From assembly GCA_951406725.2 (NCBI GenBank), contig OX597819.1, positions 38,316,001-38,380,000 of the forward strand: DNA of 64,000 nt, in the 5' to 3' direction. The DNA comes from Octopus vulgaris. Lineage: Eukaryota. Both the position numbers and the translations under genes were made by a program. The notes beneath the pieces are model-generated. The model ran no database searches and was not told where the DNA came from. It worked only from the letters and a program-made list of their open reading frames with translations. Below are positions 4,560 through 63,858 of this stretch, piece after piece. The first letter of the stretch is position 1; each line of letters begins with the position of its first letter.

Positions 4560-6445
4560 AGGAAACTTTTTTGTAAGAGTTATATCCCTTGATTAAGGAT
4601 CAGCCTGTACCATCACTGTGTATGAGATAAATGTCTGTTGAGTGGGGTTGTGATCTGAGGTGTGGGTAGGATGGTTTTAATATGTGTGGAGGTCAGAAGT
4701 GCAGATGAAGGGGAGAGATTAGTCAATCTTAAAATCATATATAAGCCTGTATGTTTAGGTGTATGAGTGTCCTTGTATGTCATAAGTTGAGTACATAAGT
4801 ATTGTACTGAATCCTCAGACTGATGATGGGAGGTGCTGATGGTGGCAAATCTGAAATTTATGTTCATGATATATGTCTGCCAGTATCCAAACAAATATCT
4901 CTAATCATAAGGGCTTGGAAAATTTTGCTTTTACACTTTAGGTAGGTATCCAGGTGATGAGAATTCTTTAGTATGATTATTTTCTTGTCACGCAGAGTCT
5001 ACTGTCATTATTGAAATAAGCCTTACACCTTTCTGGTAATCTCCACTTGATGCTGTAATCTATGGCACTTACATTCAATGACCATATATGCCTAGCGAGG
5101 GCTACAAAACCTCACATCTGGTTTGTAAAAGAAGATTTGTGGATGTTAAATCTAATTCTGAATGGACTGTCTGTCATGCCTGCATATTTCCACACATCCA
5201 TATGCCTGTTGGAATCCTTGATATCACTTGTGCCTAATATACAATGGTTTCTGTGTCGCACTGGTGTTAAGTAGACATGCTGTGTTGCCTCTGGCTTAAC
5301 ATCCTACCTCTGTCTCAAGTATGGGCCTACTTACTAAGATTTTTTTAATACTAGGTGCACAACTGAAAGAGACTCTTAAGTTATGCCTGTTTAGATGTGT
5401 CTCTTTATCTATGTGTTTAAAGAAAGTGTTTACTAATTAAACAAAGAAGGATCTTATCTACACAAGTTTTTACCTTCAGGAAGAAGTGGAGTGTGAACCA
5501 CAAAATTTTCTGGTGGAGTTTTCCCTTGGTGGGGTTAGGGTTGGTTGTATAGTTAATCTTATCCTTAAATTTGCTAGTTGCCAGGGCCTCATAATATGGA
5601 GCTGTGATGTCAAAAATTTCTTTACTGAAAAACAGGTTGAAGATTTTTCTGCTGGACCTCTTAATCAGGTTCCTTAACACTATGGCTGGAAAACAGGAAG
5701 CTGTATTAACATATGCTAGTCTTACATTTGGTTTCCTAAAGGGTTTTTAAGGAAATTAACATTAAGGAAATCAACCACCTTCAAGTTGGTTTCTATTGTG
5801 ATCATGAGTTCAAGGATTCAGGGTATTGGTTAGGTCTTACTTAAGCATATTGAGTTTGACCATTCACCCCTATTAATATTACTAAAGTATCATTTCTGTA
5901 TAGACCAAAACTAGCTGAGGAGAATTGCTTATTTTGCAAACCCAGAATAAAAATACCAATATGGTCACATACATAGTACTGTCAAAAGATCTCCACTGCA
6001 ACATCAAAGGAGTCCTGGGGTCAGTTTGCAATACCAAGGTCAACCTGTTGTTGAAGAGCAAGTTTTTCTAGCATGCATGATGATGCCTATGCTCCTGTCT
6101 TTTCTCTCATTATAGGCCCTTCGAACGTTTAGCACATTATTTAGCAAATTCCTTAATGTCAACAGATAAAAGTCCAATGTATCAAATTGGGTAAACCCTG
6201 TCCTAATTCTGATGCTATTATTTTTAAACCATTTGGCAACCTCATTGGCATTGCACAAAAGCACAAAGCCAGTGGGTCTTCTGTTATTCGTAAGGAGCTG
6301 TTTGATTGTGAAGTTACCCTCTGACTTTGTAGGGTTGATCAGATGTTTCTTGGAGGCATAGGTAGAGTTCACTTTCGTGGTCTTCAAGGGTGTTTTTTTT
6401 TTCCCCCAGAGCTTCCAACCTATCTTCAATGCCTAGTTTAACAAA
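4560..6445 (-). mobile_element. Penelope-like retroelement relic (RT + GIY-YIG endonuclease, frameshifted)
   Basis: Minus-strand translations FTQFDTLDFYL (RT), FDITAPYYEAL, TIVY..KYAGMTDSPFRIRFNIHKSSF (GIY-YIG-like); colinear with the 51900-53915 copy. Confidence 0.85.
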
Positions 6446-48850: not shown

Positions 48851-49726
48851 GCTCATTAATGCCTTTTAAGTGACACCAGCACCTGACAGGACAAACCTGT
48901 ATGTGTGGAAGACAGCAAAAACACAGTAAAGTCAACATTTCCAAAAACAGAGACGCATATAACTTATATGTAATACAACCTGTATGCAATTTAATTGTGG
49001 TATGTTTTATATCAAAATTCTTTTTATGTAAAAACTTTATTTATAGTTGACAAAAATAAGTAAGAATTTTATGCACCTGTTGTAATAACTTATTGCAATA
49101 TATTAAAAATAACATGTGAAAAATATATTCAAGTCTTCAGAGATTTTTATAACCATGTTTTTCTATGGTTGAAATATACAAAGATAATGGCGGGAGACAA
49201 TAGGACTGTTGGTTCTTGTATTCATTAAAGACATGTGTTCTTTGAGAAGCAGAGCATTGCATGCCAGGTGTGAAAGAAAATTATAACAATGATTTATTGC
49301 TTTTTAAAAATGTCCTAATACTATTAATGTAATTATGTTTCATTCTTTTATGCTCTTAATGGTTTTGGTTATCGATGGAATTCTGCCTTCAAGTGTTGCA
49401 GTCGATTATATTGATCCCAGTATTTATTTTAGCCTGGGACTTATCTTATTGATTCCTGTTTGTTGACTCATTAAGGTGTAGGATATAAAGGAATATAAAA
49501 GATGCCTGTTTTTATACTGGGACAAACATAATCATGGAAATCTACATGCAAATGTTTCTGTTTTAAGGCAAAAGTGCTACGTACTCTATACATACATGCA
49601 TTAGAACAGTGTAGAATATGGTGTATTTGGTGTACTTACACTTGGGATTGTTTTTTCATACCCACTCTGTGTGTGTGTGTGTGTCTGTGTTAATAAGTAT
49701 TTATGAATATACATATATATATGTAT

Positions 49727-49992
49727 TGTTAAAAACGGTAAGATAACAAAAGAAAGAAAGAGACCTCAATATTATGTAAATAGAGGAAATTTATCTGTAA
49801 AAATATGTGACAATTATACAATAGCCAAGATAAAACTCTGAGTTTCGGATGCCGAGGTGGAAATCCACAACACCATCTCTTCGTTTTCATATGGCCAGAT
49901 AACCGAAGAGATGGTGTTGTGGATTTCCACCTCAGCATCCGAAACTCAGAGTTTTATCTTGGCTATTGTATAATTGTCACATATTTTTACAG

Positions 49993-49995
<3 letters not shown>
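49727..49995. mobile_element. (TA)n-embedded foldback+tail element containing a hammerhead-like motif
   Basis: 92-bp arms 49792-49883 / 49904-49995 (1 mismatch); hammerhead-like fold on + strand at 49893-49963. Confidence 0.8.
49893..49963 (+). ncRNA. Putative minimal type-I hammerhead ribozyme (U4C core variant)
   Basis: Stem I AGATAA/TTATCT, core CCGAAGA, stem II GATG/CATC (one-nt offset), GAAA, stem III CTCAGAG, GUU triplet. Confidence 0.55.
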
Positions 49996-50045
<50 letters not shown>

Positions 50046-51655: not shown

Positions 51656-51717
51656 ATAATAAATTCAGGGTGAATACTTGATAAATGTAAGCACCTGTAT
51701 AGGTGATAGGATATATG

Positions 51718-51794
51718 TATCAAAAGAAAAACAGGACGCAAAGGATTTTGCGGTACATATGTACCGCAAAATCCTTTGCGTCCTGTTTTTCTTT

Positions 51795-51799
<5 letters not shown>
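51718..51799. repeat. 82-bp perfect palindrome, no spacer
   Basis: TATCAAAAGAAAAACAGGACGCAAAGGATTTTGCGGTACAT|ATGTACCGCAAAATCCTTTGCGTCCTGTTTTTCTTTTGATA. Confidence 0.95.
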
Positions 51800-51831
<32 letters not shown>

Positions 51832-51899: not shown

Positions 51900-53915
51900 C
51901 TATCCAAAGTGTACAATATTATATATCCGTCATGGCTGATCTCACCAATTGGTTTTGCTTGAGGTTCAACGGAGTGTTTGGTAACAATCTAGTTATATAC
52001 CTCATCAGAGGTAGCCAATATGGGATTAAATCTGGTGACTACTCTATATTGTTAGAGACGAATGAACACATCTGGTTTCTGGTTGCTGTGAAAAGATGAT
52101 GAAATGAAATGAGTTGGGGATTAAGTTAAGTTATGTCCCTTGATACCAAGACATCACCACTGGGTTGGTTATGCTGCAAGTTGGTAAGAGGTATCTTGAA
52201 GTGTTTGTGGGAAATGAGCACATATTTCAGGTTGGTGTTTTTATGGAAACTGGGTATGTGCAGGGAGTATAGACTTACACAACTGTGTCTGTTAGTGTGT
52301 TTTCTTTCTGTATTGGTTAAGGTAGTAGGGTCTTTATGTGAGGGGGAGTTTATATTTGGAGTGGTGATAAAATAATCTATTTGGTAGGTGTCCGCCATGT
52401 TGGGGCATGTATGTTTGTATGTGGGTGCATTGGTGAATGCTCTGGCCAAACTCTTTGCTAGACTCCAGGGTATTGGTGGAGAGCCAAGGCTGGGAGACTG
52501 GTGATTGTAGTCATGATGGGGCATGCAGGTATGATAGGATGTACTTAAACACTTCACTTCTGCTTAAACAGCCTGTGCTTCCTGCTGCTATTGTAAAAGC
52601 AAAAGTGTTGATTAAACACTTCACTTCTGCTATTCAGGTAAATGACTGGGTGCTGGGTGTTCTTTAAAATCGCTCTTTTCTCTGCCAGGCACAATATGAA
52701 CGTCTTGCTGCTATTGAAATACAGTTTACATTTCTCCAGAATCTTCCACTTTATGTTGTACTTGGTGGCACTTTCTTTCAAAGACCAAATGTGCTTGGCC
52801 AGGGTTGTGACATTGCATCTCTAGGATGTTGAAGGAGGATTGTGGTTGCTAAAGTGGGTTCTGAAGGGGCCTTCAGTTTCCCCCACCTACTGTTGCACGT
52901 TTGGTTGCCCATTTGGTCCTATGGCTGTTACCTTTGCCTGATATATGATGGTCTCCATGTTACAGTGACTGTTCAGTGGACATGTTGTGTTACCCCTACA
53001 TGAGCAATCTGCCTGTCTCAGATGTGGGCCTACCTACTAAAATCTTTTTTATACTAGGTGCACAGCTAAAGGAAATTCTCAGATTATGCCTATTGAATAT
53101 TTTGTTAAATCTATTTGTACAGGGGGAGTGTTTATCAACTAAGCTAAAAAAAAATTTTACCTACTTAGGTTTTAACACTTAAAGAGATGGGTGGTGCCAC
53201 TTTTCAGTGGCACTTTTTCTTGGAGGGGCTAGGTTCTGGCATGTAACTAATTCTATCTTTGAAACTGCTGGCAACCAGCACCTCATTGTAGTATGGAGCG
53301 GCAGTATCAAAGATCTCTTTGCTTGAAAATAAGCAGGAGCTTCTTCTACTGACACCTTTACCAGGTTCTCGAAACTATGGTTGGATGACAGCAACCTGTG
53401 TTAATGTATGATAGCTTCTTGTATGGCTTCCTAAAGGATCTATAGGCACCAGACTCTAAGTCCAGGGTTGCATCAAGGAATTCCACCGTTTTCAGATTGG
53501 TTTCTATTGTGACCTTCAGTTCAAAGGAGTTCAGGGTGCTGGTGGGATCCTTTCTAAGCCTATCTAGCCTGTGACCATTTGCCCCTCTTGATATTGCCAG
53601 GGCATCTTCCCTGTAGAGGCCAAAACTAATTGAAGGGAATTTCTTTTGAGTACATCTAAGATGAAGAAACCAACGAAATCACACACATCAGCAATGTCGA
53701 AGGCACATATTGCCATGTCAAAGGAACCTTCTGGGTCAATTCGTTTAGCCCAGGCTGACCGTTACTGAAGAGTATGGTTCTTCTGGCATGCATGATAATG
53801 TGTATATCCTCATCACTGATTTTAGTGTAGGCCGTAGTGAAGTCCAGTGCCTTAAAAAGGAGCTCCCTTGATACAGATGGGTAGAAATCCACCATATCAA
53901 ATTGGGTAAAACTAG
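51900..53915 (-). mobile_element. Penelope-like retroelement relic (RT + GIY-YIG + 3' pseudo-LTR)
   Basis: QFDMVDFYPSVSRELL, YREDALAI (YRDD-like), EFLDATLDL, VGETEGPFRTHFSNH, KHIWSLK..IKWKILEKC..LCLAEK. Confidence 0.9.
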
Positions 53916-61689: not shown

Positions 61690-62300
61690 TGGTGATCATA
61701 TAGTAAACCACATAATATGATGAACACTATGTAGATATTGTAGAAAAGAAATTTAAACAAAGATACTTTAGTTATACTTCCTCCTTCAAAAATATAGAAA
61801 ATAGGAATACAGTGAAAGTATCCAAGAACATGCTACTGATTTCAGTATCAAATGGAAGATCCTCAAAGGGATGCAGGTCATACAGAAATATGACAACTCA
61901 TTGCAAATTATGTATAGCTGAGAAAAAGTTTATTATTCAAAAGCTTAATAAATATTCAAACTATCTAAATCATTGATTAGAGATATTTACTATATGCTAC
62001 CACTCTGACAAGTATTTCATTCTTCTTTTGATAAAATATATTTTTTAAAATTTTCTTAATAAATTTTATTTCATTCTTCTTTTGGTAAAATATATTTAAA
62101 AAAAAATTTTTTTAATAAATTTATCTTCTTTTGCTGAATATTTTATCTTTTCAACTATTTAATCTAATTTCAGTGTGTTTTAATCCTGCTGAGGCATAAT
62201 TGCAATCCAAATATCAAAGACAGCACTGGCCAAACAGCTGCTGATGTGGCTGACCGCTGCTGCCAACCAAGTTGTTCCAAAGCCATCAAAGAGTATCCAT
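61690..62300 (+). mobile_element. Penelope-like GIY-YIG C-terminal fragment and 3' region
   Basis: HYVDIVEKKFKQRYFSYTSSFK..IKWKILK..CRSYRNMTTHCKLCIAEKKFII. Confidence 0.7.
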
Positions 62301-63482: not shown

Positions 63483-63858
63483 TGAATAGTGCCTGTATTT
63501 CAAAGGGTCAGCCTTGAAACATTCTGTGTCATGCTGAATTTCCCTGTGAACTACATTAAGGGTATATGTTTCTGTGGAGTGCTTAGCCATTTGCATGTTA
63601 ATTTCATGAGCAGGCTGTTTCTTGATCTGATCAACTGGAACCCTCATCATCATAACTGATGGAGTGCCAGTTTTATTCACACGCAATTATTTTTAAATCC
63701 ATTTCTTCATGCCATCAAGACAACAGCCTGCTCATGAAATTAACATGCAAATGGCTAAGCACTCCACAGAAACATATACCCTTAATGTAGTTCACAGGAA
63801 AATTCAGCATGACACAGAATGTGACAAAGCTGACCCTTTGAAATACAGGCACTATTCA
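63483..63858. repeat. Inverted duplication of SINE family E body
   Basis: ~144-bp arms 63483-63626 / 63714-63858, highly similar, 87-bp spacer. Confidence 0.9.

Follow-up and report, generated by a model that had tools for sequence, protein, structure and literature searches.

The closest described relatives of the element studied here are Penelope-like elements (PLEs) of the Hydra clade. As described by Craig et al. (2021, PMC8557442), these have a single ORF of about 710 aa, (TA)n targets and a tail of 30-40 bp, and their hammerhead has U at the cut site and a palindromic stem III of four base pairs. That study names two questions as open: what the hammerhead does, and how tandem and inverted structures arise. 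Pairs of minimal hammerheads on opposite strands, about 100-700 bp apart, have been attributed to truncated PLEs (Cervera and De la Pena 2014, PMC4209133). For Poseidon of Anolis, the account of Frangieh et al. (2024, PMC11167929) describes a protein, predicted to be a dimer, that cuts and extends both strands of AT-rich DNA in vitro, with reverse transcription starting at two sites within the RNA that delimit the tail. In Poseidon the hammerhead works with protein assistance, and an element with a dead hammerhead inserts equally well, so that cleavage is not needed (PMC11167929). Non-LTR retrozymes are described as PLE-derived short head-to-tail tandems with an intact type I hammerhead in each unit (bioRxiv 10.64898/2026.07.22.740005).

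The window analysed here, 64,000 nucleotides of Octopus vulgaris DNA, contains at 49727..49995 an element that, judged from its sequence, is very probably a heavily 5'-truncated, head-to-head inverted insertion derived from the 3' end (tail and pLTR) of a Penelope-like retrotransposon whose RT/GIY-YIG protein has the motifs of the Hydra clade. It resembles the opposite-strand pairs of PMC4209133; in the window family the parent and the junctions are mapped, the core is U4C and an extra base lies on the 3' side of stem II. The family shares with Poseidon an AT-rich target, two apparent internal reverse transcription starts bounding the tail (65 nt apart here) and an uncleaved template. Poseidon belongs to another clade, however, and its ORF begins in the hammerhead, whereas the start codon of the window family lies about 105 nt past the tail (compare PMC11167929). 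The retrozymes share the type I hammerhead and PLE derivation (bioRxiv 10.64898/2026.07.22.740005), but the window element is a head-to-head truncation product. A retrozyme assignment was rejected on this ground and because the only tandems seen are coding units of 2.6-3.2 kb.

The insertion in the window and its hammerhead

The element has two 92-bp arms (49792-49883 and 49904-49995) with one mismatch (49853/49934), a 65-bp tail (49727-49791) on the left side only and TA-rich tracts on both sides, as an earlier note made from the sequence had described. The TA-rich target tract on the left spans 49707..49726 and the (TA)n target tract on the right 49996..50043. Comparison with full-length units suggests that the tail, on the minus strand, is the stretch between two reverse transcription start sites; in those units it runs on into the 5' UTR and ORF. 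Arm alignment identified the left arm (minus strand) as a pLTR copy truncated from its 5' side at position 4, inside the hammerhead core. The right arm (49884..49995, plus strand) is a pLTR copy without the tail, and comparison with the full element showed that its first 20 bases are spacer matching the end of the 3' UTR.

By its fold, a hammerhead descriptor and comparison with the published hammerhead table, the sequence at 49894..49963 on the plus strand is a minimal type I hammerhead of the Hydra type, in which the core is U4C and stem II has one additional C. Stem I pairs 49894-49902 with 49954-49963 and is followed by the core CCGAAGA (49903-49909). Stem II pairs 49910-49913 with 49936-49939, and GAAA begins at 49941. 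A palindromic stem III and a GUU triplet (49951-49953) complete the motif, with the cut site predicted 3' of 49953. The earlier note had recognised stem I, the core, stem II, GAAA and GUU and had overlooked the extra C (49940) between stem II and GAAA. The minus strand holds no hammerhead: the left arm carries CGAAGA, but C3 is missing, as is the 5' strand of stem I. The presence of CGAAGA on both arms bears out the proposal that U4C predates the insertion.

The descriptor gave one match in the window and none in reversed and complemented controls, and the isolated motif folded with z = -2.27. When the whole 269-nt foldback RNA was folded, the arms formed one long hairpin and the hammerhead pairs had a predicted probability of 0. 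The hammerhead of the window copy is likely a passenger, given U4C and its predicted burial in a 92-bp hairpin. There was no hammerhead among the 150 best of 178 Rfam matches; this set held only microsatellite-driven miRNA and snoRNA matches, which fell below the gathering score and were discarded. A PDB sequence search returned nothing relevant.

In most copies, a pyrimidine run ending in AG, resembling a 3' splice site, lies one base ahead of the hammerhead (49884-49893 in the window, and also at locus L061 described below). An acceptor-like site has likewise been reported for Penelope of Drosophila virilis. It is altered in the youngest subfamily. In contigs of four runs presumed to be RNA there was no splice joint at this site, though the unit was covered; such contigs give no ends, strand or level and were left out of the evidence.

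The earlier note had also placed several unrelated families in the window. An independent example, a foldback of a second, unrelated hammerhead family, lies at 51658..51806 (minus strand), joined at its stem III palindrome and with a tail on one arm only. This family gave 574 first-look candidates and 222 exact tail matches in the genome, and has a long stem II and, in longer copies, a canonical core. No coding parent was found for it in 38 loci, and this family may be non-coding; a 1,625-bp pair considered as its parent proved to be a local duplication. Decayed Hydra-like ORF remnants, each followed by a hammerhead-like remnant recognised by eye, occur at 4992-6342 and 52614-53910 on the minus strand and at 61728-62021 on the plus strand, and represent other Hydra-like families. 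An inverted repeat at 63483-63858 has 137-nt arms at 97% identity and a 102-nt spacer, without TA flanks. Elsewhere in the genome, ends of the second family and of the window family lie in one TA tract (L354, near 1540-1620), which shows a shared target preference.

The coding parent and its relationship to the Hydra clade

We searched the 2.8-Gb assembly (227 contigs) for further copies. There were 1,620 first-look candidates, of which 40 were scored, and the 29 other loci retrieved matched the element at 90-95%, with centres that differed between copies. The window element is therefore not a chance structure. TA adjoined the tail end in 30 of 30 loci, and 1,182 exact TA-tail junctions were counted genome-wide, consistent with the TA targeting that had been proposed. 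The pattern of the hammerhead 5' side had 562 exact matches; many of them were paired in inverted orientation at distances of 87 to 1,563 bases, and some in direct orientation. Exact C4-type cores (C4 or its CpG decay product) numbered 3,251, compared with 275 U4 cores (CTGAAGA).

One direct pair, at L061, brackets a 3,180-bp unit made up of tail, 5' UTR, a broken RT/GIY-YIG ORF, a 0.76-kb 3' UTR and the hammerhead pLTR. At L189/L190, tandem units of 2,580 bp carry intact ORFs of 708 aa. The pLTR and tail of these parent units match the window at about 90%. The search for tandem copies and linked Penelope ORFs suggested by the earlier note thus succeeded, and its Penelope link held, as longer copies run into the 708-aa RT/GIY-YIG ORF. 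Its description of a non-coding system did not, since the unit, a pLTR with its tail, is the 3' terminus of an autonomous element that carries an ORF.

The 2,580-bp units belong to a younger subfamily and occur in tandem and inverted arrays; 20 copies of the endonuclease region differ by about 1.1%. Two such arrays of 10-14 kb, L189/L190 (G000:C1:57.208-57.223 Mb), which carries the intact ORFs, and G000:C3:37.225-37.237 Mb, are both likely very recent insertions. At L061, an endonuclease fragment of a different PLE type, with cysteines inside GIY-YIG (5814-6296, plus strand), shares the TA tract of the Hydra-like element.

Read directly, the intact ORF contains the RWK motif and DKT in place of DKG, a CxCX5C linker, no CCHH, and CxxC plus CxH around conserved E and N. 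It is a single ORF with the RT followed by a C-terminal GIY-YIG, in a unit of about 3 kb or less. The Pfam GIY-YIG match was weak (E 0.013); Atlas neighbours of the protein carry GIY-YIG and RVT_1. Copies show 5' truncation, partial tandems, an adjacent inverted copy and a tail on one end, the insertion architecture of EN+ PLEs. As the clade is described in PMC8557442, the family agrees with it in the single ORF of about 710 aa, in RWK, DKT, CxCX5C, CxxC and CxH with no cysteines inside GIY-YIG, in insertion into (TA)n, and in the four-pair palindromic stem III with U at the cut site. Stem III is identical to that listed for Penelope-3_HM in File S2 of that study. All 26 Hydra rows of the same file begin CTGA, whereas most copies of the octopus family are U4C; the canonical core occurs in an older subfamily (the 275 CTGAAGA matches) and not in the window copy or the bulk of copies. 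The tail is also longer, at 65 bp compared with 30-40 bp.

By its motifs the family appears to belong with Hydra-clade PLEs. Its nearest listed relative seems to be Hydra-1_Obim, on a comparison made only by eye, in which 27 of the first 43 residues matched. It is nevertheless a family distinct from Hydra-1_Obim (PMC8557442), with thousands of copies and intact young tandem arrays.

Arms and junctions of the inverted insertions

Junctions were examined in the first 90 of the 1,182 exact tail-TA junctions, on contigs 1 and 2; the search pattern misses the youngest subfamily, and one locus was short. We called 51 of these copies inverted and 39 single-armed, although on inspection two inverted calls were spurious AT-rich matches and at least five single-armed calls had a missed partner. 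None of the 51 inverted insertions had a second tail, a rule that also held for a 14-kb array and for the second hammerhead family of the window. The tail-less arm ended at the upstream site in 39 of the 51, and in four more on inspection. The tail arm was the shorter one in 33 insertions, the longer in 12 and equal in 6.

Overlap between the arms was 4 nt or more at 19 of the 51 junctions and 1-3 nt at 11; 3 junctions were blunt and 18 held inserted bases. Only 1.8% of random pairs overlapped by 4 nt or more, a generous comparison in that the null is exact and the alignments tolerate mismatches. Junctions were most frequent at a 6-bp palindrome that precedes stem I, where 14 of 141 ends shared one position; further peaks lay on complementary stem segments.

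Short foldbacks were very common (both arms at most 200 nt in 34 of 51), one junction type recurred, and non-autonomous PLE derivatives are described elsewhere (bioRxiv 10.64898/2026.07.22.740005; PMC8557442). These observations would fit a non-autonomous foldback similar to a retrozyme or a MITE, in which the whole foldback would be transcribed and cleaved and would be mobilised in trans. This explanation is very improbable, and already largely refuted. Copies range continuously in length up to full-length units and 14-kb arrays, the recurring junction is spread over different subfamilies, the hammerhead is predicted to be inaccessible within the hairpin, and no short tandem hammerhead monomers of the retrozyme type were seen. 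The exact centre junction of the window copy had two matches genome-wide, the other one being in a different subfamily and with the tail on the opposite arm. Junctions thus vary per copy, contrary to the earlier view of a foldback element. A MITE or foldback DNA element was likewise rejected, as the centre is variable and the ends are unequal across copies. Among truncated copies of graded length, the window element thus stands at the shortest extreme.

Among 67 arm pairs, divergence was 7.8% within insertions and 11.9% between them. Arms agreed at one site in 63 of 66 pairs, compared with 39 by permutation, and belonged to different subfamilies at linked sites in 4 of the 67. A rare variant carried by the window copy had 32 exact matches; in 17 insertions both arms cover the site, and 13 of these have the variant on each arm. 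Over the 67 pairs, rare variants were shared in 7 cases and confined to one arm in 245, and gene conversion was therefore ruled out as a general cause of arm identity. These data indicate that the arms come mostly from one donor lineage, sometimes from two, and were seldom homogenised later. An apparent excess of U4 on tail arms (7/30 compared with 0/30) vanished in an unbiased set (8 compared with 6) and was due to ascertainment.

The occurrence of one tail only in all 51 inverted insertions, together with junctions that differ per copy, suggests that the two arms are two separately primed cDNAs joined head to head. In the proposed mechanism, the protein would cut both strands of a (TA)n tract, and each target 3' end would prime reverse transcription within an RNA that had not been cleaved. 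One start would lie at the end of the tail and the other 65 nt upstream, and the two cDNAs would stop early and then be joined head to head, often through short complementarity provided by hammerhead stems and palindromes, so that the hairpin-shaped insertion would likely be made anew each time. The observations behind this model are the parent ORF, the (TA)n flanks, the variable junctions, the tail on one arm and read-through of the hammerhead site. We consider it quite probable that the window element derives from the 3' end of a Hydra-motif PLE as a head-to-head inverted copy with 5' truncation, likely built at insertion from two separately primed cDNAs; taken by itself, the two-cDNA mechanism for the arms is reasonably well favoured.

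Some results run counter to parts of the model. Of the 90 tail-anchored copies, 39 were scored as having one arm, so an insertion does not require two cDNAs. The arms usually share subfamily and even rare variants, which fits the copying of one molecule as well, and 18 of 51 junctions hold inserted bases in place of an overlap. The Poseidon data, as far as that account (PMC11167929) goes, offer no explanation for the tail on exactly one arm, as they give no strand difference in start-site use.

In self-priming, a strand would pair with itself at a palindrome and serve as its own template; this has been suggested, with an antisense template, for palindromic junctions between inverted copies of rotifer Penelopes (Arkhipova et al., PMC3846280). 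The top junction peak at a 6-bp palindrome, the strong concordance of the arms and the folding back of the second hammerhead family at its own stem III palindrome are consistent with self-priming. However, simple snap-back of one cDNA does not predict that either arm may be the longer (33 compared with 12). Moreover, where the tail arm is shorter each arm holds sequence absent from the other, four of 67 pairs combine different subfamilies, and the tail-less arm stops at a fixed site. We therefore regard self-priming as unlikely. In a literature search, judged from titles and the opening of abstracts, no other paper pointed to a two-cDNA model; most subscription journals lie outside the coverage of this search.

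Subfamilies, ribozyme decay and read-through

Among the matches listed, U4 was linked to a second variant in 78 of 100 cases, compared with 2 of 100 for C4, and U4 therefore marks an older subfamily from which U4C is derived. Non-CpG divergence in 205 pooled units, three of which fell in no subfamily, was 3.2% in the U4-rich group (n=38), 3.2% in a second older group (n=16) and 3.3% in the group of the window copy (n=69); because differently biased searches were pooled, it does not order these three. The next younger group was at 1.9% (n=55) and the youngest, with intact ORFs, at 0.3% (n=24). The window copy is thus mid-aged, at odds with its earlier description as young and best-preserved. 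In the two youngest groups C11.1U is present as well and stem I is shorter, and the youngest intact copies carry a mutated and, by its sequence, probably weakened hammerhead.

Read-through was scored in arms that extend beyond the start of the ORF. Of 174 such matches, 90 loci were used and gave 91 alignments, four of which were misaligned and dropped; the sample is mostly of the youngest subfamily and counts arrays more than once. At the upstream cut site, 70 alignments read through, 1 ended within a base and 16 stopped before it. Since 70 of the 71 arms that reach the site pass it, the templates were mostly uncleaved. Only 6 of 141 5' ends lay within 1 nt of the predicted cut (1 of 87 in the ORF-passing set), and a pile-up of ends there was not convincing. 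Stem I microhomology explains three of these six ends, and the small excess still leaves room for some cleavage.

Dimeric PLE hammerheads were reportedly described by Lunse et al. in 2017. The U4C hammerhead might still cleave in vivo, as a dimer or with help from the protein, and trim precursors, the cleaved RNAs not being those that are inserted. Conservation across subfamilies extends to the rest of the core and to the palindrome of stem III, and the stem III duplex has an energy of -9.2 kcal/mol. U4C lowers activity but need not abolish it, as a natural U4C variant is described as active enough for viroid infectivity (PMC3088659), and protein assistance is described for the Poseidon hammerhead (PMC11167929). 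Even so, we find such cleavage doubtful. C11.1U and a shorter stem I have been added in the youngest subfamily, whose insertions hold multi-unit read-through, and conservation over so short a divergence is weak evidence, as a role in RT binding may hold the stretch.

Read-through of uncleaved templates agrees with the model of two separately primed cDNAs. Tentatively, every two-armed insertion may be the record of a dimer that used two reverse transcription start sites once each, with ribozyme stems as joining microhomology. The lineage would have spread while its hammerhead decayed stepwise (from U4 to U4C to U4C with C11.1U and a shorter stem I), catalysis being dispensable in vivo. If true, this model would explain at once why there is a tail, why copies are inverted and why hammerhead mini-foldbacks are abundant.

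The window locus itself is ordinary transposon debris of a known kind; its variant aspects are the 65-bp tail and a hammerhead that is decayed in the most recently active lineage. TA-flanked hammerhead hairpins of this type are easily misannotated as MITEs or retrozymes. Thousands of foldbacks, if transcribed, would give long double-stranded RNA, and we speculate that this might serve as a substrate for A-to-I editing or small RNAs. With thousands of insertions, a series of subfamilies with a decaying ribozyme and intact young ORFs, the family is a useful natural test set for both open Penelope questions, the function of the hammerhead and the origin of tandem and inverted structures.
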